A stretch of 64,000 bases of DNA from Bacilli bacterium (GTDB taxonomy: Bacteria > Bacillota_I > Bacilli_A > RF39 > UBA660), in the NCBI GenBank assembly GCA_017472015.1, contig JAFURC010000026.1:5427-69426 (forward strand), given 5' to 3'. Under the pieces are notes generated by a model. The model was not told where the DNA came from. It searched no databases and saw only the letters and a program-made list of their open reading frames with translations. Below, in pieces: positions 7,365 to 55,242 of the stretch (positions are counted from its first letter, which is position 1; each line of letters starts with the position of its first letter). The translations under genes were made by a program, and so were the position numbers.

Positions 7365-7955
7365 ATGAACGAATCTATCGATATAAAGAAGCAGTTAGAA
7401 GTAAAGAATAAAGAAATTTACATGAATAAACTAAATCTTGATCTTGATAATAATTTAGAAGTTCTAGTATTAACAATTGATAATTTATTAAATTATATCA
7501 CAAGTGATGTTACTAAAAAAATTATTGAAATTGAAGAAAGTTTTTCCTTAACTGAAGAAATTCAAGATAATGTTAATAAATTTATTAACATTTATCGAGA
7601 TAATTTGATGAATTTACTTGAAATAAAGAAAAATAATTTACAAAATGTTTTAGTAATTCAAGATGATTTAGAAATTTGTCGGGATAATTTAAATGATAAT
7701 TATCTAAATTTAAAAAATAATTTAGAAGATTTTTCAAAAGAAAATATTTCTAGTTTAGTAAATGATTTAAAAAAAGTAATTGAAGATAGTTTTAAAAGAA
7801 AAAGGTTAAAAGATTATTTAAATAATATATTTATTATTAATTTAAATAAAAAGATCTTAGATATAATAAAAAATCGGGATGTTATTTTAATGAATACATT
7901 CAATGAAACCTATTTAAAATATTTAGAATTAAACAAAAATACTGTTGGAGTTTAA
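7365..7955 (+). CDS. hypothetical helical protein
   Basis: ORF with RBS GAAAGGG and upstream TTGACA. Confidence 0.7.
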   Translation: MNESIDIKKQLEVKNKEIYMNKLNLDLDNNLEVLVLTIDNLLNYITSDVTKKIIEIEESFSLTEEIQDNVNKFINIYRDNLMNLLEIKKNNLQNVLVIQDDLEICRDNLNDNYLNLKNNLEDFSKENISSLVNDLKKVIEDSFKRKRLKDYLNNIFIINLNKKILDIIKNRDVILMNTFNETYLKYLELNKNTVGV

Positions 7956-7965
7956 TTCTTTTTTT

Positions 7966-7994
7966 GTATAAATATCCTAAATTTACTAATACTA
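7966..7994 (+). promoter_or_regulatory. putative forespore sigma-G-type promoter for spoVT
   Basis: GTATA-17 bp-AATACTA; spoVT is sigma-G dependent in B. subtilis. Confidence 0.5.
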
Positions 7995-8012
7995 AAAAAG
8001 GGTGAAGAATAA

Positions 8013-8537
8013 ATGAAAACAACTGGTATGGTTAGACGAGTTGATAGTTTAGGTAGAATTGTAATACCAAAAGAAATAAGAAAAGTTTTAAAAATTAAAG
8101 AGAATGAACAAGTAGAAATCAATGTTTCAGATGATAGTATAATTCTTAATCGTTATTCAGAATTAGATGAATATGATATTTCCCTTACCAATTTAATTGA
8201 AGTAATTCAGGAAGTTTATAATAAAGAAATTTTAGTAACTAATTTAAATTCTTTTGTTTTAGCATCAAATGAATTTAAAGATTTAATTGGTTGTGAAATA
8301 AGTCCATATTTAAGTAATATTTTAGATAACCGGAAAGAGATAGTTGAAAATATTTCAGTTAATCTATCTTTAAATGAGACAATTGATGATGTAAAAAAAT
8401 CTTTTATAATAAAACCAATCATTAAAAATGGAGATACAGTAGGTTTATTAATACTAATATCAGATGATAATTTAGAAAATAATGATACTAAATTATTTGA
8501 TCTTGTGAATTCTTTTTTAGATAAATCTCTTGAATAG
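8013..8537 (+). CDS. spoVT: stage V sporulation protein T (AbrB-like N-domain plus GAF-like C-domain)
   Basis: MKTTGMVRRVDSLGRIVIPKEIR; 174 aa; PII..GD..G C-terminal motif; follows mfd. Confidence 0.85.
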   Translation: MKTTGMVRRVDSLGRIVIPKEIRKVLKIKENEQVEINVSDDSIILNRYSELDEYDISLTNLIEVIQEVYNKEILVTNLNSFVLASNEFKDLIGCEISPYLSNILDNRKEIVENISVNLSLNETIDDVKKSFIIKPIIKNGDTVGLLILISDDNLENNDTKLFDLVNSFLDKSLE

Positions 8538-8565
8538 ATTTTTATTTTATGCTAGAATATGCGTG

Positions 8566-8762
8566 TAAAGCGATGAAGAAATGAGTAAATTAAAAAGTAT
8601 TTTAAGAGATACTTCGTTTGGTGAGAGAAGTAATTACTTTTAATTGAAGATGGTTTTGGAGCTGTTAAGTCCGTATTTTTGCGTTAAAAAAATAAGACAT
8701 AGAAATATGTGAAATAAGGTGGTACCACGAGATCTTCGTCCTTTGGATGAAGATTTTTTTGT
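8566..8762 (+). promoter_or_regulatory. T-box riboswitch, Met specifier
   Basis: stem I with AGAGA and GGTGAGA, specifier ATG at 8650-8652, T-box AAGGTGGTACCACG 8716-8729, terminator ATCTTCGTCC/GGATGAAGAT plus T-run. Confidence 0.93.
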
Positions 8763-8867: not shown

Positions 8868-10403
8868 ATGGAAAATAAAAAATATTATATAACAACCCCA
8901 ATATATTATCCATCGGCTAATTTTCATATTGGGCACTGTTATACAACTGTAATTGCTGATAGTATAGCAAGATATAAAAAACAACAAGGATATGATGTTT
9001 ATTTCTTAACAGGAAGTGATGAACATGGTTTAAAAATCCAAAAAAAAGCCGAAGAAAGTGGAGTAACACCACAAGAATATGTAGATAATATAATAGCGGA
9101 TGCAAAAGATTTATGGAAAAGTTTAAATATTGAATATGATAAATTTATAAGAACAACTGACGATTATCATGTAAAAACAGTTCAACAAATTTTTAAGAAA
9201 TTATATGATCAAGGAGATATTTACAAAGGAGAATATAAAGGACTTTATTGTACTCCATGTGAATCATTTTGGACTGAAACTCAATTAGTAGATGGTAAAT
9301 GTCCTGATTGTGGACGTGATGTTAATGAAGTTAGTGAAGAGGCTTATTTCTTCAAATTATCTAAATATCAAGATAGGTTAGTAGAATATATTGAATCCCA
9401 TCCCAAATTTATTCAACCAGTGTCTCGTAAAAATGAAATGATTAATAATTTCATTAAGCCAGGTCTTGAAGATTTATGTGTATCACGTACAACTTTTACT
9501 TGGGGAATTCCAGTATCTTTTGATGACAAGCATATTGTTTATGTTTGGATAGATGCTTTATCAAATTATATAAGTGCGTTAGGATATTTAAGTGAAGATG
9601 ATTCTTTATTTAAAAAGTTTTGGCCAGCTGATTTGCATATTGTTGGAAAAGAAATCGTTCGTTTTCATACAATTATTTGGCCTTGCTTATTAATGGCTTT
9701 AGATTTACCTTTACCAAATCAAATATTCGGACATGGTTGGTTAATTATTAATGGTGGTAAAATTTCAAAAAGTTTAGGAAATTATAGAGACCCAAGAGAA
9801 TATATTTCAGAATATGGAGTAGATGCTATTAGATATTATTTACTTCGTGAAGTACCATTTGGATCAGATGGAACTTTCAGTGAAGAATTATTAATTACAA
9901 GATATAATACTGATTTAGCCAATACTGTTGGAAACTTAGTTAATCGTACTTTATCGATGTTAACTAAATACTTTGATGGAGTAATCGAAAAATCAGATGT
10001 TAAGACTGAATTTGATGAAGATTTAATTAATTTAGTTACAAAAACTGAAGAAAAAGTAAATAATTATATGGAAAAATTAGAAATTCCTGAAGCATTAGAC
10101 TCAATTTTTGATATTTTTAGAAGATGTAATAAATATATTGATGAAACAACTCCATGGATTCTTGCTAAAGAAGAAAATAAAGATAAATTAAAAACTGTTT
10201 TATATAATTTACTTGAATCAATTAGAATTGGAGCAATTTTCTTGAATTCATATTTACCAGAAACTTCTAAAGAGATTTTAAGACAATTAAATACTAAAGA
10301 AACAACTTATGAATCAATTAAAACATTTGGTTTATTAGAAAGTGGTATTCACATAAATGATTTTAAACCAATTTTCATGAGAGTTGAGAAAAAAGATGAA
10401 TAA
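8868..10403 (+). CDS. metG: methionyl-tRNA synthetase (short form, no C-terminal OB domain)
   Basis: YITTPIYYP, HIGH, KISKS, zinc knuckle CxxC...CPDC. Confidence 0.98.
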   Translation: MENKKYYITTPIYYPSANFHIGHCYTTVIADSIARYKKQQGYDVYFLTGSDEHGLKIQKKAEESGVTPQEYVDNIIADAKDLWKSLNIEYDKFIRTTDDYHVKTVQQIFKKLYDQGDIYKGEYKGLYCTPCESFWTETQLVDGKCPDCGRDVNEVSEEAYFFKLSKYQDRLVEYIESHPKFIQPVSRKNEMINNFIKPGLEDLCVSRTTFTWGIPVSFDDKHIVYVWIDALSNYISALGYLSEDDSLFKKFWPADLHIVGKEIVRFHTIIWPCLLMALDLPLPNQIFGHGWLIINGGKISKSLGNYRDPREYISEYGVDAIRYYLLREVPFGSDGTFSEELLITRYNTDLANTVGNLVNRTLSMLTKYFDGVIEKSDVKTEFDEDLINLVTKTEEKVNNYMEKLEIPEALDSIFDIFRRCNKYIDETTPWILAKEENKDKLKTVLYNLLESIRIGAIFLNSYLPETSKEILRQLNTKETTYESIKTFGLLESGIHINDFKPIFMRVEKKDE

Positions 10404-46539: not shown

Positions 46540-46824
46540 ATGCGTAATTATGAACTTATGTTTGTTGTAAGACCAACACTTGAAGAAGAAGCAACTTTAA
46601 ATGTTTTAGCAAACATGAAAAAAATTCTTGAAGAAAAAAATGCAAAAATCGTATCTGAAAAAAATATGGGAAGACGTGAACTTGCATATGAAGTAAAAGG
46701 ATTCAAGAATGGTAATTACTTTTTATTAGTTGTAGAGGCAACTCCAGAAGCTGTAAAAGAATTTGATCGTGTTGCTAATATTAACGAAGATGTAATAAGA
46801 CATATAGTAGTTAGAGTAGATTAA
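46540..46824 (+). CDS. rpsF: 30S ribosomal protein S6
   Basis: MRNYELMFVVRP, G.R.LAYE, VIRH. Confidence 0.98.
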   Translation: MRNYELMFVVRPTLEEEATLNVLANMKKILEEKNAKIVSEKNMGRRELAYEVKGFKNGNYFLLVVEATPEAVKEFDRVANINEDVIRHIVVRVD

Positions 46825-46834
46825 GGAGTAATTT

Positions 46835-47311
46835 ATGAATAAAGTATTTTTAGTAGGTAGATTAACAAGAGATCCAGAATTAAGATATGGATCAAGTAAC
46901 AATGCTGTTATGCGTACATCAATTGCTGTAGATAGACAATTTACAAATCAAAATGGTGAACGTGAAGCAGATTTTATTAATATTGTTGCATTTGGTAATC
47001 GTGCTGAAACAATGAAAAAATATTTAACTAAAGGAAGTCAAATTGCTGTTAGTGGTCGTATTCAAACAGGATCATATGATGGATCTGATGGAAAAAAAGT
47101 TTATACAACTGATGTTATAATTGATGAATTTCAATTTTTAGATACTAAAGGTTCAAGAACTGATTCAGGTAATCAAACACAAACTTCAGGTTCTAATACT
47201 GAAATGACTCCATATGATTTTTCAAGTGGTAGTCAAGATGTAGTAGAAACTGATCCATTTAAAGATTTTGGTGATAAGATCGAAATAGATGATAGCGATT
47301 TACCTTTCTAA
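46835..47311 (+). CDS. ssb: single-stranded DNA-binding protein
   Basis: MNKVFLVGRLTRDPELR; DLPF tail. Confidence 0.98.
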   Translation: MNKVFLVGRLTRDPELRYGSSNNAVMRTSIAVDRQFTNQNGEREADFINIVAFGNRAETMKKYLTKGSQIAVSGRIQTGSYDGSDGKKVYTTDVIIDEFQFLDTKGSRTDSGNQTQTSGSNTEMTPYDFSSGSQDVVETDPFKDFGDKIEIDDSDLPF

Positions 47312-47326
47312 GAATAGGAGGATAAA

Positions 47327-47548
47327 ATGGCAGAATTTTATAGAAAAAAGAAAAAAGTATGTTATATGTGCACAACTGGTAAAGATATTAACTATAAAGA
47401 TGTAGAAATTTTAAGAAAATACATCAATGATAAAGGAAAAATCTTACCTCGTCGTGTAACAGGAGCATGTGCTAAACATCAAAGATATATAGCAGAACAA
47501 ATCAGAAAAGCTCGTGCAATTGCATTACTTCCATATACAAATAAATAG
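47327..47548 (+). CDS. rpsR: 30S ribosomal protein S18 (zinc-binding form)
   Basis: CYMC, GKILPRRVTG.CAKHQR, ALLPY. Confidence 0.98.
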   Translation: MAEFYRKKKKVCYMCTTGKDINYKDVEILRKYINDKGKILPRRVTGACAKHQRYIAEQIRKARAIALLPYTNK

Positions 47549-47574
47549 GAATTTTGATATTTCTATTTTTTTTT
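47542..47574 (+). terminator. terminator after rpsR
   Basis: AAATAGGAAT/ATTTCTATTT plus T-run. Confidence 0.65.
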
Positions 47575-47618
47575 ATATAAAAATATGATAAGATAAATTA
47601 TATAATAAAGAGGGAATT

Positions 47619-49094
47619 ATGAAAGAATTAGATGATTTATTAAAAAGATATAAAGAAAATTTAGAAATTGATCAACAAAACTTAGAAAATTTTATGAATA
47701 TCAACTTTCCTAATTTAAATTTAGATCAAGATATCTTAGAACAAATTAATTTAGATATAATAGTTTTTTATGAAAAAATCCTTAATAAATTATCTTTATC
47801 AGAATTAGAAGAAAAAAAATTTCAGGAAGCATTTGATTATTTTAGACTTAATATGGATTTAGATTTAAAAAATTTAATTGTTCGTGATTTTAAATGTTTA
47901 AATTTTATTTCTAAAATTAAAGAATTAAATAGAAAAGTAGAATTATATAGACAAACTATGATTAATAATTATCAAAGGGAAATTGAAAAATGTAAGAACT
48001 TAATTAAGCCCATTGATAGTATCAAAGGGCTATTTCAGAGCACCTCTGAAATAGATATATATTATTTAAATGATTTATTAAATAAATTATCTTTTAATGA
48101 AAAATTCAGAGAAAATATTATAGCGGATGCTTTAAAACATAATTTTGATCTTACCAAAACTAATCAAGAAGAATATCAGGAAGAATCTGAATTATCAGAA
48201 GAAGTAGAAATAATTGAAATAGAAGAAAAACAAGAAGATTTAAATATCCAGGAATCGGATGTTCAAATAATTGATTTATATTTAGATTTAATAGATGATT
48301 TACTTGAAAAAATTAAACTAAATCCTAAAAATCCCGAACAAGATCATTTAAATCAAGCAAGATTAATAGAATTAAGAGATAAATTATTGGAAGCAAAAGA
48401 AAATTCTGAACTATGTCAGGAAATGTTAAATGAAGCATCACAAGAAGAAATTACATATTTAGGTAAGGTATTAAAAGAAATAGTTATAACAATGAAAAAT
48501 ATAATAGATGAAGTTTCTGAAATAGCCGATGAATACCAAAGAGAACTTGAGGAAGAAATTATTGAAACTGAAATAAAAAGGAATTTAATTTTTTTAAATT
48601 CAACTTTTAAAGATCTTGAAGAATTTAAAAAAGAAGTTTGTCAATTGCCAATTATAAAGAAATTATATGGAATGCTTAAACATTTACAATATGATGAAAT
48701 TCTTACAACAACACCATATACACAAGTATCATCTCCAATTCCTATTAATGAATATAAAGTAAAAAAATCTAAAGGTACCCCAAGATTATTTTATCAAGTA
48801 ATTGATGGAAATGTAATTGTCCTTTTACTTGGTATTGAAGGAAGAAAAAAACATTCAACTTTTAAAAGTATGATTGAAGGTAGAATAACACAGTCTGTTG
48901 ATAGCGAACATAAACGATTAATAAATAGTTTTAAATTAGCTAAATCTTATCCAAATGAAAAATGTGAATATAATCAGAAGTTAACTAACAAAGAATTTTT
49001 AGAACAATTATTATCTAAATATCAAGAAGTTGAACAAGAATTCTTTGAAAAATTCCATGCAGAATGTTATAATCCTAATTCTAAAAAGAGGTGA
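47619..49094 (+). CDS. hypothetical coiled-coil protein with C-terminal RelE/ParE-like domain
   Basis: LIF-STFKDLEEF-IIKKL..ML..L-INEYKVK-RLFYQV-VIVLLLG pattern. Confidence 0.55.
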   Translation: MKELDDLLKRYKENLEIDQQNLENFMNINFPNLNLDQDILEQINLDIIVFYEKILNKLSLSELEEKKFQEAFDYFRLNMDLDLKNLIVRDFKCLNFISKIKELNRKVELYRQTMINNYQREIEKCKNLIKPIDSIKGLFQSTSEIDIYYLNDLLNKLSFNEKFRENIIADALKHNFDLTKTNQEEYQEESELSEEVEIIEIEEKQEDLNIQESDVQIIDLYLDLIDDLLEKIKLNPKNPEQDHLNQARLIELRDKLLEAKENSELCQEMLNEASQEEITYLGKVLKEIVITMKNIIDEVSEIADEYQRELEEEIIETEIKRNLIFLNSTFKDLEEFKKEVCQLPIIKKLYGMLKHLQYDEILTTTPYTQVSSPIPINEYKVKKSKGTPRLFYQVIDGNVIVLLLGIEGRKKHSTFKSMIEGRITQSVDSEHKRLINSFKLAKSYPNEKCEYNQKLTNKEFLEQLLSKYQEVEQEFFEKFHAECYNPNSKKR

Positions 49095-49102
49095 TATATT
49101 AT

Positions 49103-50821
49103 ATGTTAAGTGAATTAATAGAAAAATATAAAACTAAAAAAATAAATGAATTTCAAATAATTAAACATAATCATGAAATAGATAATTTATTAAAATATTT
49201 CCTAGATGAAACTAGTTTTTCTAATTTAGATATTGATAATTTCATTAGTTTTTTAGAAAAAAATAAATATACTGACTATCCTCTTGAAAAAGTAAGAATT
49301 ACGTTAACTTATATAAAAAGAAATAATTCTTATAATGATCCTAGTTGTAAAAGTTTTTTTGAAAGTTTAAGAAATTATTTAACTAATTTAAAAGAAGAAA
49401 CTTTATCAACTGAAGAATTAGAACAATTAATAATAAAAGTTAATAACTTATTAAATACTATTTCAAATCCGGATATTTTTATAGAAGATATAGAATTAAT
49501 AATTAATATTATTAAAGAATTAAGAATAAGTGAAAATGATATGTTTGCTTGTATGTTAGAAATTAATGAACACAATTTAAATTTTGTTAATAAATTAGGT
49601 AATAAAAACGAATTATTAGTACAAAAAGAAGAAGAAAAAATTGAAATAATAGTTTCCAATGATGATTTATTAAAACAATTTGGTTATAATTTAAATTTAT
49701 CAGCTGAAGAGAAGAAAATAATTAATTCGATATCAAATGAATTTTTAAAAGAAAAATTAGATTTCTTTAAGAATACTCCTAAATATAGTTTTTTAAGTCA
49801 ATTTGAATATCAAAAATTATTAATAACCCTACTAAAGTATGCTAAATTAGAAAATATTAAAAAAGTTTTAGAATTATCTATTAAACATAATCTTGATTTA
49901 AAAGAGATATTACCAACTTTTTATCTAAATAAAGATTTAATTATAGATGAGTATAGTGATGAATTTTATAAAACTTTAACAGGTACTTATGAATGTTTTG
50001 TTGAAAATATTAGAATGTTAGAAGTTCTTGATATTTCTATTTCAGAAATGTATCAAAATTCAATTAATTTCTTTATGACTAATAATAATTTACTAAAAGA
50101 AAATATTAAAACTTTTGAGGAATATGAAATACCTTTTAATAGTAAAAGTTTTTCTTTATTAACTTCTTTAATGACTAATGATTTACAAACTAAATTAGAT
50201 AGATTTATAGAAACTAATTTATTTGATTATGTCAAGGAATATCCAAATATTTTATTAAATCAAGATAAAGCCTTATTTCATAGAATTCATTATGCAAGGC
50301 AAAATAATTTACCAATTAAAAGACGTTATTTAAGTTCTTTCATAACTAGTACAAATGGTTATCAAATAAATGAAGATAATTATGAAGAAATAGTTGCTAC
50401 TTATACATCACCTTACTTTGATAAACCAATTTACAATGATATTTTAAAAGAACCTAGAAAAGTTTTGGAAGATACTAAAAATAATAGTTTAATAAAAGTA
50501 TTAGATACTTATTTATATGATAAAAATACTTATTATATTGCTAATACTTATATTTCAAGGTTTAAAGTATTAAGATTATATCAAGGTCTTTTAGATAAAA
50601 AAGAAGAAAATCCAAATTATTTTGAAGGAGTTTTATTTTCTATTTTACATGGTTTAATAATTGATAAAGATAAATATGAAGATATTGTTTTAGAAATAAT
50701 GAAATTTTATAAAGAAAATGAAATGATTTATTTTGATGTAGCTGTTAGTATTTGTCGTAAATTAGGAATTAGTGTTCAAAAAATATTTCAAGAATTAAAT
50801 AGTTATGAAAGGACGATATAA
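49103..50821 (+). CDS. hypothetical protein with mTERF-like helical repeats
   Basis: repeated L.E.[IL]..[FL]...[GI] and P..L[LF] units; RBS GAGGTG. Confidence 0.5.
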   Translation: MLSELIEKYKTKKINEFQIIKHNHEIDNLLKYFLDETSFSNLDIDNFISFLEKNKYTDYPLEKVRITLTYIKRNNSYNDPSCKSFFESLRNYLTNLKEETLSTEELEQLIIKVNNLLNTISNPDIFIEDIELIINIIKELRISENDMFACMLEINEHNLNFVNKLGNKNELLVQKEEEKIEIIVSNDDLLKQFGYNLNLSAEEKKIINSISNEFLKEKLDFFKNTPKYSFLSQFEYQKLLITLLKYAKLENIKKVLELSIKHNLDLKEILPTFYLNKDLIIDEYSDEFYKTLTGTYECFVENIRMLEVLDISISEMYQNSINFFMTNNNLLKENIKTFEEYEIPFNSKSFSLLTSLMTNDLQTKLDRFIETNLFDYVKEYPNILLNQDKALFHRIHYARQNNLPIKRRYLSSFITSTNGYQINEDNYEEIVATYTSPYFDKPIYNDILKEPRKVLEDTKNNSLIKVLDTYLYDKNTYYIANTYISRFKVLRLYQGLLDKKEENPNYFEGVLFSILHGLIIDKDKYEDIVLEIMKFYKENEMIYFDVAVSICRKLGISVQKIFQELNSYERTI

Positions 50822-50822
50822 A

Positions 50823-51110
50823 ATGGAATTTTTAAAATTATATGGTTTAAATGATATAGAAATAAATAAATTATATATAAAATATAGTAAAGCGCTTATT
50901 AATAGTATTATATATAAAAAAGAAAATGTTTTATTAATTCTTAATTATTTTAAAGAAAAAGAATTTGATTTAAAAACAATTATCTTAAATCGATTAGATC
51001 TTTTCTTGATTAATTTTAATCATTTAAAAGAAAAAATAGAAAAATATAATGAAGAAAGAATAATTAATTGGTTAAAGGATGATATTTCTTTAATTGATAG
51101 TTTAAATTAA
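50823..51110 (+). CDS. small hypothetical protein, mTERF-like repeat
   Basis: MEFLKLYGLNDIEINKL...ILNYFKE...TIILNRLDLF; RBS AAAGGA. Confidence 0.5.
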   Translation: MEFLKLYGLNDIEINKLYIKYSKALINSIIYKKENVLLILNYFKEKEFDLKTIILNRLDLFLINFNHLKEKIEKYNEERIINWLKDDISLIDSLN

Positions 51111-51134
51111 GATAGATCTTTTCTATCTTTTTTT
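51109..51134 (+). terminator. terminator closing the three-gene operon
   Basis: AAGATAGA-TCTTT-TCTATCTT plus T-run. Confidence 0.7.
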
Positions 51135-51184
51135 TCTTAGTCGTGCTATAATATTAATATATTTTAGATTGAGGAGGTTTTTTT

Positions 51185-51622
51185 ATGAAAGTCATATTTT
51201 TGAAAGATGTAAAAGGACAAGGTAAAAAGGGAGAAATAAAAGAAGTAAGTGATGGGTATGCAATGAATTTTTTAATTAAAAAAGGATATGCTTTAAGAAA
51301 AACTGAAGGTAGTCTAAGTAAATTAAAAGAAGAAATTAAAGAAAGTCAAGAACTTGATTTAAAGAATAGAGAAGAAGCTTTAAAATTAAAAGAAAAATTA
51401 GAAAGTCTTACTTTAAATTTTAAAGTTAAAGCATCAAGTAGTCGTATGTTTGGAAGTATTAGTACTAAGCAAATTAAAGAAGAACTTATGAAACTTGGGA
51501 TTAATATTGATAAAAAACAAATTGAAAATACTAGTATTAATTCTTTAGGAATGCATTTAGTTGATGTTGTTTTATATAAAGATATTAAATGTAAATTAAA
51601 AGTTCATACAGAAGGTAATTAA
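51185..51622 (+). CDS. rplI: 50S ribosomal protein L9
   Basis: [33 protein letters not shown]. Confidence 0.98.
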
Positions 51623-51623
51623 G

Positions 51624-52973
51624 ATGTTAAGAAGTGTTCCAAATAGTCTTGAAGCAGAACAAGCTGTTTTAAGTGCAATGTTTTTATCAAGGACTGCTCA
51701 AGATATTGCTTTTGAATCAATTGATGAAAATGCTTTTTATTATGACAACAATAAAAAAATATTTATAACTTTAAAAAGTTTATATGATAGTAACGTTCCA
51801 ATTGATATGACAACGATTACTAATGAACTTCGTAATAAAGGTTATTTAGAAGAAATTGGGGGAGTAATTTATTTAACTGAAGTATTAAATACGGAATCAA
51901 CGGCTGCTAATATTAATTATTATTTAAAAATAGTAAGTGATGATAATTTACTAAGAAGATTAATAGAAGTATCAAATGAAGTTAATCAAATGGGATATAA
52001 TACGGATAAAGATGTATCAGAAACGCTTGATGAAGCAGAAAGAAAGATTCTTAGTATTGTAAAAGATCGCCGGGCAACGGAGTTTCGAAATATAAAAGAT
52101 GTTGTTTATCAAGTACAAAAGAATTTACAAAATTTAGCCGAAACTAAAGGAGATATTACTGGTATTGCGACTGGATGGACGGACTTTGATAAGATGACAT
52201 CAGGTCTACATGAAAATCAATTTATTATAATTGGAGCTCGTCCGGCTATGGGTAAAACTGCGTTTGCACTTAATTTAGCAACGAATGTAGCAACTTCATC
52301 AGGTAAAAGTGTTGCTGTATTTAACTTAGAAATGGGTGCAGAGCAACTTGCTAATCGTATGTTATCTTCACTTGGCCAAATTGAAGGTTATAAGTTTATG
52401 AGTGGTAAATTAAATAATAATGATTATGTGAAATTTAATGAAGCCTTAAGTCAACTTGAAGATACCAATATTTTTATAGATGATACACCAGGCATTACAA
52501 TTGGGGAAATTCGTTCTAAATGCAGGAGGTTAAAAACTTCATCATCAGGACTTGATTTAGTAATAATTGACTACTTGCAATTAATATCAGGTGGTAAGAA
52601 TTATGGTTCTAATCGTCAACAAGAAGTATCTGATATATCGCGTTCTTTAAAAATGCTTGCCATGGAGTTGAAAATTCCAATTATAGCCCTTTGTCAATTA
52701 TCTCGTTCGGTTGAAGCCCGTGAAGATAAACGACCACTTATGAGTGATTTAAGGGAATCCGGATCAATTGAACAAGATGCCGATATCGTGGCTTTCTTAT
52801 ATCGTGATGATTATTATAAAAAAGAAGCAAGAAATGAAAATAACACTAGCATAAGTGAATTAATTGTTGGAAAACATAGAAATGGTACAACTGGAACTAT
52901 CAATTTATTATTTAAACGTGATACTAGTACATTCTTGAATTTCACAAATGAAGGGAGTGAAGTAAGTGAGTAA
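51624..52973 (+). CDS. dnaB: replicative DNA helicase
   Basis: EAEQAVL, GARPAMGKT, DYLQL, DLRESGSIEQDAD, KHRNG. Confidence 0.98.
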   Translation: MLRSVPNSLEAEQAVLSAMFLSRTAQDIAFESIDENAFYYDNNKKIFITLKSLYDSNVPIDMTTITNELRNKGYLEEIGGVIYLTEVLNTESTAANINYYLKIVSDDNLLRRLIEVSNEVNQMGYNTDKDVSETLDEAERKILSIVKDRRATEFRNIKDVVYQVQKNLQNLAETKGDITGIATGWTDFDKMTSGLHENQFIIIGARPAMGKTAFALNLATNVATSSGKSVAVFNLEMGAEQLANRMLSSLGQIEGYKFMSGKLNNNDYVKFNEALSQLEDTNIFIDDTPGITIGEIRSKCRRLKTSSSGLDLVIIDYLQLISGGKNYGSNRQQEVSDISRSLKMLAMELKIPIIALCQLSRSVEAREDKRPLMSDLRESGSIEQDADIVAFLYRDDYYKKEARNENNTSISELIVGKHRNGTTGTINLLFKRDTSTFLNFTNEGSEVSE

Positions 52974-54402
52974 AAAAAATAGTAAATTTCCACTTGTTGG
53001 AGTAATTATATCTTTAGTTTTTGCTTTTCTGATTACATTTTTAATAACAAATGATATCTTTGGAGAACAAAAAAATCCTAGGGAATTATACCGGGTATAT
53101 TTAAAAGGTGAATCAATTGGTTTGATAGAATCCAAAAGTGAATTGTATAACTATATTAACAGGATGCAACAACCTCTAAAAGAAAAATATCATGTTGACA
53201 CGGTTTATATTTCAAATGATATAAGTGTGGTTAAAGATGTAGCTTACAATGAAAATATAACAAGTATTAATAATATTTATGATATCATAAATGAAAAATC
53301 ATCTTTTACTATTAAAGGGTATACGGTCACTATCGATAAAACTAATACTACTGATTATGTTGATGATGCTCAGGTTGAAAGTGATGAAAAAGATGATAAT
53401 AATGAACCTAAAATATTATTTTTAAATATTTTAGATAAAACAATGTTTGAAAATGCTCTTAAAAAGACAATTTTATCTGTTGTAACGGAAGAAGAATATA
53501 AAAATTTTGTTAATGGAACTCAAAAAAATATTGTTACGACAGGTGAAGTTATTGAAGACTTGTATATTCGAGATGTGATAACCATTAAAGAAGCCTATTT
53601 ACCAGTTAATGAAAAGATTTATACAAGTGAAGAAGAATTAATAGACCATTTAATTTATTATTTAGACGTGATACTAGTACATTCTTAAATTTTACAAATA
53701 AAAGGAGTGAAGTAAGTGAGTAAAAAAAATAATAATTTTCCAATTGTTGGAGTAATTATATCTTTGGTTGTTGCATTTGTAATTACATTTTTAGGAACCA
53801 ATGATGTCTTTGGAGAACAAAAAATACCTATGGAATCCTACCGAGTTTATTTAAAAGGTGAATCAATTGGTTTAATTAAATCTGAAAGTGAATTATACGA
53901 TTATATTAATAAAATGCAACAATCTTTAAAAGAAAAATATAATGTTGATAATGTTTATATTCCAAATGATATTAATGTTGTTAAAGATGTAACTTATGAA
54001 GAAAATTTAACAACTATTAGTAATATCTATAATATTATAAATGAAAAATCACCTTTTACTATTAAAGGGTATATGGTAACAATTGATAAAACGAATACAA
54101 CAAACTATGTTGATGATGCTCAAGTTGAAAGTGATGAAAAAGATGATAGTAATGAACCTAAAATATTATTTTTAAATATTTTAGACAAAGAAATGTTTGA
54201 AAATGCGGTTAAAAAAACAATTTTATCTTTTGTAACTGAAGAAGAATATGAAAATTTTATTAATGAAACGCAAAAAAGTATTGTTACAACTGGCGAAATT
54301 ATAGAAGATTTGTATGTTGAAGATGTTGTAACTATCAAGGAAGCCTATTTACCAGTTAATGAAAAAATTTATACAAGTGAAGAAGAATTAACGGCTCATT
54401 TA
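52903..54402 (+). repeat. diverged 750-bp tandem duplication (52903-53652 / 53653-54402)
   Basis: both units start with dnaB 3' sequence ATTTATTATTTA(A/G)ACGTGATACTAGTACATTCTT and continue into the M23 gene 5' part. Confidence 0.92.
52966..53688 (+). CDS. truncated paralog of the M23 protein N-terminal region (TM plus uncharacterised domain only)
   Basis: about 80% aa identity by eye to the first 225 aa of 53716-55242, no indels. Confidence 0.8.
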   Translation: MSKKNSKFPLVGVIISLVFAFLITFLITNDIFGEQKNPRELYRVYLKGESIGLIESKSELYNYINRMQQPLKEKYHVDTVYISNDISVVKDVAYNENITSINNIYDIINEKSSFTIKGYTVTIDKTNTTDYVDDAQVESDEKDDNNEPKILFLNILDKTMFENALKKTILSVVTEEEYKNFVNGTQKNIVTTGEVIEDLYIRDVITIKEAYLPVNEKIYTSEEELIDHLIYYLDVILVHS

Positions 54403-55242
54403 TTATTTGGTAGCGAACAAAATATGTCATCTTATAGAGTAAAAAAAGGTGATACTTTAAATGAAGTTGCGGAAGCTAATAAAATGAATGTTAACGAAAT
54501 TTTAATAGCTAATTCTAATTTAAGAACAAGCAATGCTTTACTTTATGAAGGTCAAGAATTAACTATAGGAGTCTTGGATCCTGTATTTACAACAGTTGAA
54601 GAAAAACACGTGGTTGCTGATCAAACAATTGCTTATAAAACCGAATATGTTTATGATAATACTAAACTAGTTGGTTATCAGGCAGTTCAAACTCAAGGTA
54701 GCAATGGAATTACGAGAATTACTCAAAAGATAAAAAGTGTTAATGGTGAAATTGTAACAGCTTTAATTTCTAGTCAAGAAGAAATTAAACCAGTTGTTAA
54801 TGAAGTAATTGTTAAAGGTGGAAGAAAACCAGTAATAGCAACAGCCGGAAACTGGACTTGGCCAACAAATATTCCATATATTATATCAAGTCACTATGGT
54901 TGGCGATGGGGAACCCTTCATCGTGGTCTTGATATATCAGGAACTGGATATGGTTCACCTATATATGCTGCTAAACCCGGTGTTGTAACTGAAGTTAATT
55001 ATCATTATTTATCAGGAAATTATGTGGTTATAAATCACCAAAATGGTTATTATACAAGATATGCTCACATGTCAAGATTATCACCTTATGTAAAAGTCGG
55101 GGATTATGTTACAGCTGGTCAAACAATAGGAGATATGGGAAGTAGTGGTCGTTCAAATGGAACTCACTTACACTTTGAACTTTGGTACGGAAAACCTTAT
55201 GCTTCTGGAAGTCAATGCTATAACCCATTATTATTCTACTAA
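53716..55242 (+). CDS. membrane-anchored LysM-G5-M23 peptidoglycan endopeptidase
   Basis: YRVKKGDTL LysM, G5 region, HRGLD and HLHFE M23 zinc motifs. Confidence 0.93.
   Translation: MSKKNNNFPIVGVIISLVVAFVITFLGTNDVFGEQKIPMESYRVYLKGESIGLIKSESELYDYINKMQQSLKEKYNVDNVYIPNDINVVKDVTYEENLTTISNIYNIINEKSPFTIKGYMVTIDKTNTTNYVDDAQVESDEKDDSNEPKILFLNILDKEMFENAVKKTILSFVTEEEYENFINETQKSIVTTGEIIEDLYVEDVVTIKEAYLPVNEKIYTSEEELTAHLLFGSEQNMSSYRVKKGDTLNEVAEANKMNVNEILIANSNLRTSNALLYEGQELTIGVLDPVFTTVEEKHVVADQTIAYKTEYVYDNTKLVGYQAVQTQGSNGITRITQKIKSVNGEIVTALISSQEEIKPVVNEVIVKGGRKPVIATAGNWTWPTNIPYIISSHYGWRWGTLHRGLDISGTGYGSPIYAAKPGVVTEVNYHYLSGNYVVINHQNGYYTRYAHMSRLSPYVKVGDYVTAGQTIGDMGSSGRSNGTHLHFELWYGKPYASGSQCYNPLLFY

Follow-up and report, generated by a model that had tools for sequence, protein, structure and literature searches.

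A gene trio between rpsR and rplI of a ruminant-gut Bacilli bacterium pairs a predicted RelE/ParE-fold protein with an mTERF-like repeat protein

What might be the role of three tightly coupled genes, belonging to no described family, that lie between the ribosomal protein genes rpsR and rplI of a gut bacterium? The genes are located in a 64,000-nucleotide stretch (hereafter, the window) of the genome of Bacilli bacterium (GTDB lineage Bacteria; Bacillota_I; Bacilli_A; RF39; UBA660), assembly GCA_017472015.1, contig JAFURC010000026.1, positions 5,427 to 69,426 of the forward strand. The trio consists of three co-directional open reading frames (ORFs) of 491, 572, and 95 amino acids (aa), here called ORF1, ORF2, and ORF3, between rpsF-ssb-rpsR (46540–47548) and rplI-dnaB (51185–52973); the intergenic gaps are 8 nt (ORF1–ORF2) and 1 nt (ORF2–ORF3). 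Coordinates given without a contig refer to the window, and all features of the trio are on the plus strand. The trio is a pairing of two known folds, both recognized in predicted structures (a RelE/ParE fold in ORF1 and an mTERF-like solenoid in ORF2), in an unnamed module restricted to one GTDB family. As to its function, we tentatively favor, with a probability of about 0.4, a toxin–antitoxin-like or defense-type (abortive-infection) switch, that is, an optional lineage-specific effector module organized around the RelE-family domain.

An AlphaFold2 model of ORF1 (47619–49094) was built from a 16-sequence alignment with a mean predicted local distance difference test score (pLDDT) of 81.8. 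It comprises a helical N-terminal domain (residues 1–190; 47619–48188), a low-confidence acidic linker (186–209), a three-helix bundle (212–307; 48252–48539), a RelE/ParE-fold domain (320–410; 48576–48848), and a conserved helical tail of three helices (412–482; 48852–49064), alignable across the types of partner proteins encoded at related loci. The beta-alpha-alpha-beta-beta-beta order that the initial annotation had read by eye at 48579–48848 was reproduced by the model: a strand at 323–325 is followed by helices 327–336 and 343–357 and by strands 365–367, 376–380, 388–395, and 398–407, so that the fold elements (323–407) span about 48585–48839. In a Foldseek search of the PDB with ORF1, rows 1–49 were chains of RelE, YafQ, ParE, HigB, YoeB, and related toxins (E 0.04–0.6, target template modeling score 0.39–0.71); the query is five times as large as the domain, which weakens the E-values. 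VIA-align superimposed the domain on YafQ (9lew_B, Z 9.0, root-mean-square deviation (rmsd) 2.1, 86/90 residues), ribosome-bound RelE (4v7j, Z 8.6, rmsd 2.5, 91/94 residues), HigB (6af3, Z 8.4), YoeB (Z 8.1), and the RelE part of Cami1 (8phj_X, Z 8.1, 110 residues aligned). At the level of predicted structure, the RelE/ParE fold of ORF1 320–410 (~90 residues), the fold of ribosome-targeting RNases, is confirmed, as the initial annotation had proposed. The wide VIA-align search with ORF1 was uninformative, its top being filled by generic three-helix bundles, and the bundle at 212–307 likewise matched only generic three-helix bundles, with Z up to 12. Domain 1 of release factors RF2/RF1 was tried as a candidate for residues 211–308 (1gqe, Z 10.2, rmsd 2.6, 87 residues) and was rejected, since unrelated bundles tied with it or outscored it.

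In sequence comparisons, neither ORF1 nor its C-terminal 175 residues matched any Pfam family at E ≤ 1, including PF05016, PF05973, and PF15738. The best match of the ORF1 alignment profile among PDB sequences was E. coli RelE with a marginal E of 0.02, and E-values of the profiles against RelE in the PDB ranged from 0.02 to 0.07. In the ORF1–RelE profile alignment, PRLFYQVIDGNVIVLLLG is paired with YRLVYQVIDEKVVVFVIS. In the HMMER alignment, K, R, and R of ORF1 fall at the positions of K54, R61, and R81 of RelE, and F falls at that of Y87; K52/K54, R61, R81, and Y87 are what we take to be the active-site residues of E. coli RelE. The basic residues at the three positions are retained in the ORF1 subtype and in a partner type of ~330 aa described below. 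With a further profile, exopolyphosphatase (E 0.002) outranked RelE in the PDB; strands and tail were aligned, and this match was treated as a chance one.

ORF2 (49103–50821) is best started at ATG 49103, which is preceded 8 nt upstream by a ribosome-binding site, GAGGTG, and agrees with the ML.EL start of its homologues. In its AlphaFold2 model (15 sequences, mean pLDDT 87.2, predicted template modeling score 0.62), an N-terminal helical domain (residues 1–166; 49103–49600) and a disordered linker precede a helical-repeat solenoid (181–437; 49643–50413) with the conserved motif KLDxFIExGLYDYVKxxPxxLL, followed by a C-terminal domain with a three-stranded sheet (442–565; 50426–50797; YxI...ISRxKVLR). 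Across 50 sequences, four residues do not vary: E370 and, in the C-terminal domain, Y477, S485, and K488. Short helices follow one another over 186–440 of the model, their lengths being ~12, 7, and 5 residues in 296–400. Foldseek against the PDB placed MTERF1 at the top (E 0.86, probability 0.77), then MTERF3, MTERF4, and TAL effectors. In the wide VIA-align search, the five best of 48,161 representative chains were mTERFs (Z 7.0–9.1, 192–230 residues aligned): MTERF1 (3n6s_A, Z 9.1, rmsd 5.6, 217 residues aligned to model residues 182–420), MTERF3 (Z 8.5), a Tetrahymena mitoribosomal protein (6z1p_BY, Z 7.6), and MTERF4 (Z 7.4 and 7.0); TALE-like proteins came next at Z of about 6. Among helical-repeat proteins a Z below about 13, as all these values are, is common and may mean a shared arrangement only; the likeness carries weight because a single family fills the top ranks. 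ORF2 181–437 thus resembles, in its predicted structure, an mTERF-like superhelical solenoid, a type of structure by which DNA or RNA is read, and the repeat-like strings pointed out in the initial annotation fall within this region.

ORF2 is not an mTERF at the sequence level. Neither ORF2 nor ORF3 matched PF02536 at E ≤ 1 (model cut-off 23.1 bits); a Pfam-level mTERF protein of the same genome, serving as positive control, scored 92.4 bits, and hhalign against it gave probabilities of 1.7% for ORF2 and 1.0% for ORF3. No convincing structural match was found for the C-terminal domain of ORF2 (best AlkC, Z 5.1). Foldseek of ORF2 against viral models reached a probability of 0.23 at best, and the best ESM Atlas feature score, 0.85, was below the level of a lead; the Pfam labels of the neighboring ESM Atlas clusters were of the kind drawn by low-complexity AT-rich repeat proteins.

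The two large proteins of the trio begin with paralogous helical domains, as judged from profile comparisons: hhalign aligned ORF1 4–187 with ORF2 2–171 (probability 55%, E 1.2e-4), and the ORF2-family profile matched ORF1 2–194 with E 6e-6. Complex prediction for full-length ORF1 with ORF2 1–440 gave a score of 0.57, and the best of three controls scored 0.00; the runs agreed in at least 93% of contacts, with a partner pLDDT of at least 76. The mark applied here is passed by 116 of 157 solved complexes and by 2 of 215 mismatched pairs, and only 18 of the 157 solved complexes, together with both passing mismatches, pass with scores of 0.60 or below. The pairing of ORF1 with ORF2 1–440, one part of the multimer prediction suggested in the initial annotation, is weakly supported by this modeling.

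ORF3 (50823–51110), best started at ATG 50823, is helical by sequence pattern and represents a small partner encoded behind ORF2-like genes. That it consists of one or two mTERF-like repeats, as first suggested, is only weakly indicated: its profile aligned with ORF2 292–340 at an hhalign probability of 5%, and the ORF3-like gene of one congener had a sub-threshold PF02536 match of 20.8 bits (cut-off 23.1). ORF3-like genes were also seen elsewhere in the genome, one of 90 aa before a 499-aa degenerate repeat protein (G000:C8:105675–107434) upstream of genes read as rplM-rpsI, and one of 98 aa that follows a fragment of a helicase, 849 aa long and containing five HA domains of PF03457 (G000:C26:10708–13550).

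The distribution of the trio was analyzed at several depths. A word-indexed protein search returned 5 clusters for ORF1 and 4 for ORF2, and a repeat with the ORF1 alignment added none. HMMER with the ORF2 alignment found 563 representatives at E ≤ 1e-3, 316 at ≤ 1e-10, and 57 at ≤ 1e-30, mostly of 560–620 aa and aligned end to end, the clusters being defined at 50% identity. Among 49 of the 150 listed distant ORF2 homologues, Pfam gave no match over cut-off and one sub-threshold Clathrin row. The ORF2 protein was encoded in 9 of 22 other congeners and in none of 18 genomes outside the genus; the ORF2-family profile was matched in 9/49 genomes of the same GTDB family, in 0/349 genomes of 29 other families of the class, and in 29 of 150 further genomes of the GTDB family (about one per genus). 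The ORF2 family was thus found in a single GTDB family of ruminant-gut Bacillota.

Within the genus, the 9 ORF2-positive congeners contained 10 loci, congener G002 holding two copies of the trio. ORF2 and ORF3 were present together in all ten and ORF1, by tblastn, in nine; a 577-aa gene occupied the place of ORF1 in the tenth. Four loci were located between rpsR and rplI, three were flanked by rpsR only and one by rplI only (three of these four one-sided loci reach the contig end), and two were located elsewhere, beside uvrA or near uvrB; gene names at the loci of relatives were assigned by reading of N-termini. Trio proteins shared 24–57% identity among congeners, versus 63–99% for rpsF, ssb, rpsR, rplI, and dnaB. 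In 4 of 5 checked congeners without the trio, rpsR was followed directly by rplI with gaps of 77–121 nt, and in the fifth a 173-aa gene was present. The trio is optional cargo in a variable rpsR–rplI gap, because four of the five trio-less congeners have an empty junction; its co-occurrence and its optional nature are directly observed, and the three genes were found together, as the initial annotation required of its proposal, in congener loci as well as in further genera of the family. In one congener, a RelB antitoxin gene (PF04221, 30.4 bits) was located behind ORF3 in the rpsR–rplI gap (L013:8057–8356).

A wider family of modules became evident from 40 ORF2-like loci, namely the window, the 10 congener loci, 9 loci from a class-level search (including a second module of the same genome), and 20 from a family-level search. 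An ORF3-like gene was located just downstream of the ORF2-like gene in 30 of them, and a co-directional upstream gene of at least 150 aa was present in 39. The upstream partners are 213–662 aa in size and are sometimes preceded by a further gene of 138–184 aa (ORF0); in the ten loci without an ORF3-like gene, the partner was mostly of ~330–366 aa. In several types, the C-terminal end of the partner aligned with the RelE-like domain and tail of ORF1. Such an end was detected in at least 20 of the 40 loci: 14 of the 17 alignment members were found again, 4 were new by hidden Markov model search, and 2 were added by hhalign (probability 81–82%; at most 0.4% for 8/8 control proteins). Pfam PF05973 (Gp49/HigB-like) was matched by 3 of 17 partner C-termini, with a best E of 9.2e-4, and Pfam searches of 13, and then 24, neighboring partner proteins returned only an arginyl-tRNA synthetase neighbor and sub-threshold rows. 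The second module of the genome (G000:C45:23840–27757; L039:6841–10757, minus strand) encodes proteins of 428 aa with a RelE-like end, 785 aa (ORF2-like), and 100 aa (ORF3-like), and lies upstream of a 197-aa gene and rpoB-rpoC. In another genus, two small gene pairs, RelE/RelB-like by eye, were located 2.5–4.5 kb downstream of the module (L068:6257–6833, 7622–8255).

The genome also encodes proteins recognized as mTERFs by Pfam. Adjacent ORFs of 131 and 331 aa (G000:C31:6147–7553, locus L024), located just upstream of a gene read as RelA/SpoT-like, matched Pfam mTERF with 30.3 and 92.4 bits and have ~35-residue repeats; they probably represent a pTERF-type protein. Within the genus, 8 of the 23 genomes have PF02536 matches over cut-off (one genome has as many as 11), versus 0 of 14 control genomes. 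pTERFs are mTERF-like tandem-repeat proteins from metagenome-assembled genomes (MAGs) of Bacillota (Hu et al. 2024, Nucleic Acids Res, PMC11417379), and according to the available part of this paper they bind specific double-stranded DNA (dsDNA) with nanomolar Kd. The view of mTERFs as confined to eukaryotic organelles, on which the initial annotation relied and which plant and animal literature still expresses, the accessible text of a 2026 plant paper among it (PMC12977773), in calling them absent from prokaryotes, does not hold, given the pTERF publication of 2024 and the Pfam-level mTERF protein of this very genome.

How does the trio compare with described systems? Its ORF1 domain has the same predicted fold as RelE/ParE type II toxins (HigB/Gp49-like PF05973, RelE, YafQ, YoeB), and toxin-first HigB modules likewise have a RelE-type gene ahead of a putative nucleic-acid binder. 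Unlike these toxins, the domain is embedded in 491 aa, with ~310 helical residues before it and ~80 after it, and has no Pfam-level match. The partner also differs from that of type II toxin–antitoxin systems in being a 572-aa mTERF-like protein instead of a small helix-turn-helix (HTH) or ribbon–helix–helix (RHH) antitoxin, and in having an N-terminal domain in common with ORF1. In Cami1, a CARF–RelE protein of type III CRISPR systems, the RelE-family domain is at the C-terminal end of a larger controlling protein, as in ORF1; as described in the part of the paper available, this fusion is an earlier example of a larger sensor protein that carries a RelE domain and serves in defense (PMC11229360). 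Unlike Cami1, the trio has no CARF match in Pfam, no CRISPR genes were seen among the ORFs read around it, and control would be exerted by a partner protein and not by a cyclic nucleotide. ORF2 is similar to pTERFs, as these are described in the accessible text, in originating from Bacillota of ruminant-gut metagenomes and in forming a helical-repeat solenoid that resembles human MTERF1, but it differs from them in having degenerate repeats without a Pfam mTERF match (pTERFs have 3–11 tandem units), additional domains at both termini, and a RelE-like protein encoded in its operon (PMC11417379). MTERF1, MTERF3, and MTERF4 (PF02536) are the best structural matches of ORF2 181–437, which also contains motif-like strings of a proline followed by LL; unlike the organellar proteins, ORF2 is bacterial, has no sequence-level membership, and its Z is below the trusted level for helical repeats. 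No publication joining mTERF with toxin–antitoxin systems was found in the literature searched, absence elsewhere not being proven by this. The initial observation of a bacterial module combining mTERF-like and RelE-like proteins was largely confirmed, through predicted structures and co-occurrence, and the interpretation given to it was supported in part.

If the trio is a toxin–antitoxin or abortive-infection switch, its gene order would be that of higBA and its logic that of Cami1. ORF1 and ORF2 would pair via their N-terminal domains, with ORF3 as a small accessory subunit of ORF2, and ORF2 (with ORF3) would hold the RelE-like domain inactive. ORF2 may also be a binder of one specific nucleic acid (the operator of the trio itself, or a trigger), and ORF1, once released, would then act in the A site of the ribosome and halt translation. 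Several observations weigh against such a switch. The RelE-type columns vary among homologues, the R81 position being Q or E in some; RelE Y87 is replaced by F in ORF1; and in the rpoB-side partner R61 is replaced by K, while the R81 position falls in an acidic stretch. The complex prediction is a weak pass, and helical domains that are homologous may associate because they are alike. Pfam and NCBIfam revealed no small gene of HTH, RHH, or Phd type in the trio, and, at 572 aa, ORF2 is far above the size of any antitoxin known to us. None of the three proteins matched a PADLOC-DB 2.0 family at E ≤ 1, and no integrase or phage gene was seen beside the trio in the loci read. Contigs of two metatranscriptome runs gave long clean pieces over rpsF-ssb only, with short partial matches for the trio. 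The 785-aa ORF2-like protein of the second module is present in 20 of 22 congeners at 44–55% identity, and module subtypes hold their site across genera (4 genomes have it before rplU-rpmA-obg, i.e., addA–rplU; 3 have it near rpsO-pnp; and 2 upstream of rpoB), which looks like vertical inheritance rather than a mobile defense island.

Much of this counter-evidence (the incomplete RelE residues, the retained paralogue, the stable sites), together with undetected Rho, feeds the principal alternative, which appears possible though rather doubtful: an organelle-style gene-expression factor, in which ORF2-like solenoids would, in the manner of mTERFs and pTERFs, bind specific sites on DNA or RNA and with the RelE-like partner terminate, insulate, or process the transcripts of neighboring core operons or act on ribosome assembly. 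The hosts have ~25% G+C, and Rho (TIGR00767) over cut-off was found in 0 of 23 genomes of the genus (13 of them at least 90% complete), versus 8 of 14 controls; the rpsR–rplI trio would then be a dispensable extra paralogue. The mTERF-like fold predicted for ORF2 is consistent with this reading, as are the pTERFs of Bacillota MAGs with their nanomolar binding of specific dsDNA (in the available part of PMC11417379) and the Pfam mTERF matches in 8/23 versus 0/14 genomes, by which the lineage expanded the fold. The modules are also co-directional beside expression operons: between rpsR and rplI, at the 197-aa gene and rpoB-rpoC (L039, L071), after rplQ (L043), before rplU-rpmA-obg (L041, L047, L077, L080), near rpsO-pnp (L044, L067, L074), and after rpmE (L063), and the rpoB-side 785-aa protein is nearly constant in the genus. 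At the same time, 13 of 22 congeners lack the trio, 4 of the 5 checked having a clean empty site, and it is thus not essential; the ORF2 family, moreover, was found in no more than 29 of the 150 genera sampled in the family. In genomes of 1.0–1.5 Mb many neighbors are housekeeping genes by chance, the position of a gene is no proof of its action site, and RelE-type domains are not known to take part in termination. A more specific version is unlikely: an organelle-like system in which ORF2-type solenoids read operon-boundary sites near their own genes and recruit the RelE-derived endonuclease to end or cut transcripts.

The incomplete conservation of the basic residues, F at the Y87 position, and the absence of a Pfam RelE-family match for ORF1 could also mean that the RelE-like fold serves for binding and is catalytically dead, the trio being a structural or regulatory complex without RNA cleavage, e.g., in chromosome or replication-linked organization, its fast divergence reflecting weak constraint. 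The long coiled-coil or helical-bundle N-terminal parts and neighbors such as dnaB, gyrB-gyrA, uvrA, uvrB, uvrC, and addAB in various loci agree with this, but the invariant residues of ORF2, the three basic positions kept in the ORF1 subtype and the ~330-aa partner type, and an even split of synonymous and non-synonymous differences in ORF1 argue against it, and we consider it quite unlikely. The split is 9 synonymous to 9 non-synonymous among the ORF1 differences listed from two other metagenome runs (a small partial listing, with 185 further differences), and it fits a coding gene under purifying selection, since random change would give more non-synonymous differences. A secreted polymorphic toxin of LXG or type VII style, with the N-terminus of ORF1 for trafficking, a RelE-like toxin, and ORF2/ORF3 as immunity protein or chaperone, would explain the helical N-terminus, the variable C-terminal partner architectures, and the small helical ORF0 (138–184 aa) of some loci. 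It is very improbable and was set aside: in this genome, 92.5% complete, WXG100 (PF06013) was not found, and EssC remained below cut-off (113.5 bits vs. 778.4) with an FtsK-type appearance; no LXG match was found in Pfam and no signal-peptide-like N-terminus by reading; the RelE-like domain stops short of the C-terminus; and ORF2 carries the N-terminal domain of ORF1, which an immunity protein does not need. The toxin–antitoxin-like or defense-type switch remains the reading that we favor.

The source assembly was 1.33 Mb in length and consisted of 49 contigs with a G+C content of 24.9%. DNA nearly identical to that of the locus was present in sheep, bovine, and other gut metagenome runs of several studies, and contigs of one sheep-gut and one bovine-gut run matched parts of the trio at ~96–98% identity. 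The initial description of three tightly coupled ORFs between rpsR and rplI was borne out, and its statement that they are bounded by terminators holds on one side. After ORF3, an 8-bp terminator-like hairpin with a T-run (51109–51135) had –7.8 kcal/mol and z –2.84, with 3 of 200 shuffles as good. The spacer between rpsR and ORF1 (47549–47618) contains, by sequence reading, a weak hairpin with a T-run and then a GAGGG ribosome-binding site; its hairpin folded no better than chance (–3.8 kcal/mol, z –0.81, 41/200 shuffles folding as well) and is not a supported terminator. A scan for the terminator consensus flagged neither hairpin. The trio proteins had no family match at E ≤ 1 in Pfam, NCBIfam, or PADLOC, except for two rows far below cut-offs, RSLD_CPSF6 (E 0.22) and an NCBIfam ligase (E 0.057).

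Several features outside the trio were also recorded. A 240-aa ORF (52966–53688) shares 81% identity over 231 residues with the N-terminal part of the gene product that follows it (53716–55242), a 508-aa LysM-G5-M23 peptidase; relatives have one gene at the 52966–55242 site, and the 240-aa ORF is either a partial tandem duplication or a mixed-strain assembly artefact. A T-box leader (RF00230, 101.3 bits) was located at 8564–8746, upstream of an ORF at 8868–10403. On contig C31, an ORF of collagen-like GPTG/GATG triplets (L024:3299–3838, G000:C31, minus strand) adjoins a gene read as serine-recombinase-like.

The ORF2 family is sizeable, with 563 clusters, and 0 of 49 scanned members reach the Pfam cut-off; the module would represent a second, operon-embedded class of bacterial mTERF-like proteins. 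If the organelle-like system of boundary-reading solenoids outlined above were true, it would provide a protein-guided, potentially reprogrammable RNase or terminator with recruitment via the N-terminal domain, and paralogues dedicated to the rpsR–rplI, rpoBC, rplU, and rpsO boundaries. If the solenoid is sequence-specific as in pTERFs, the pair might offer a natural model on which to base protein-guided targeting of RNA or DNA. If the RelE-like domain is active, the trio would be a new wiring of a ribosome-targeting RNase to a large nucleic-acid-reading repeat protein, via a duplicated N-terminal domain.

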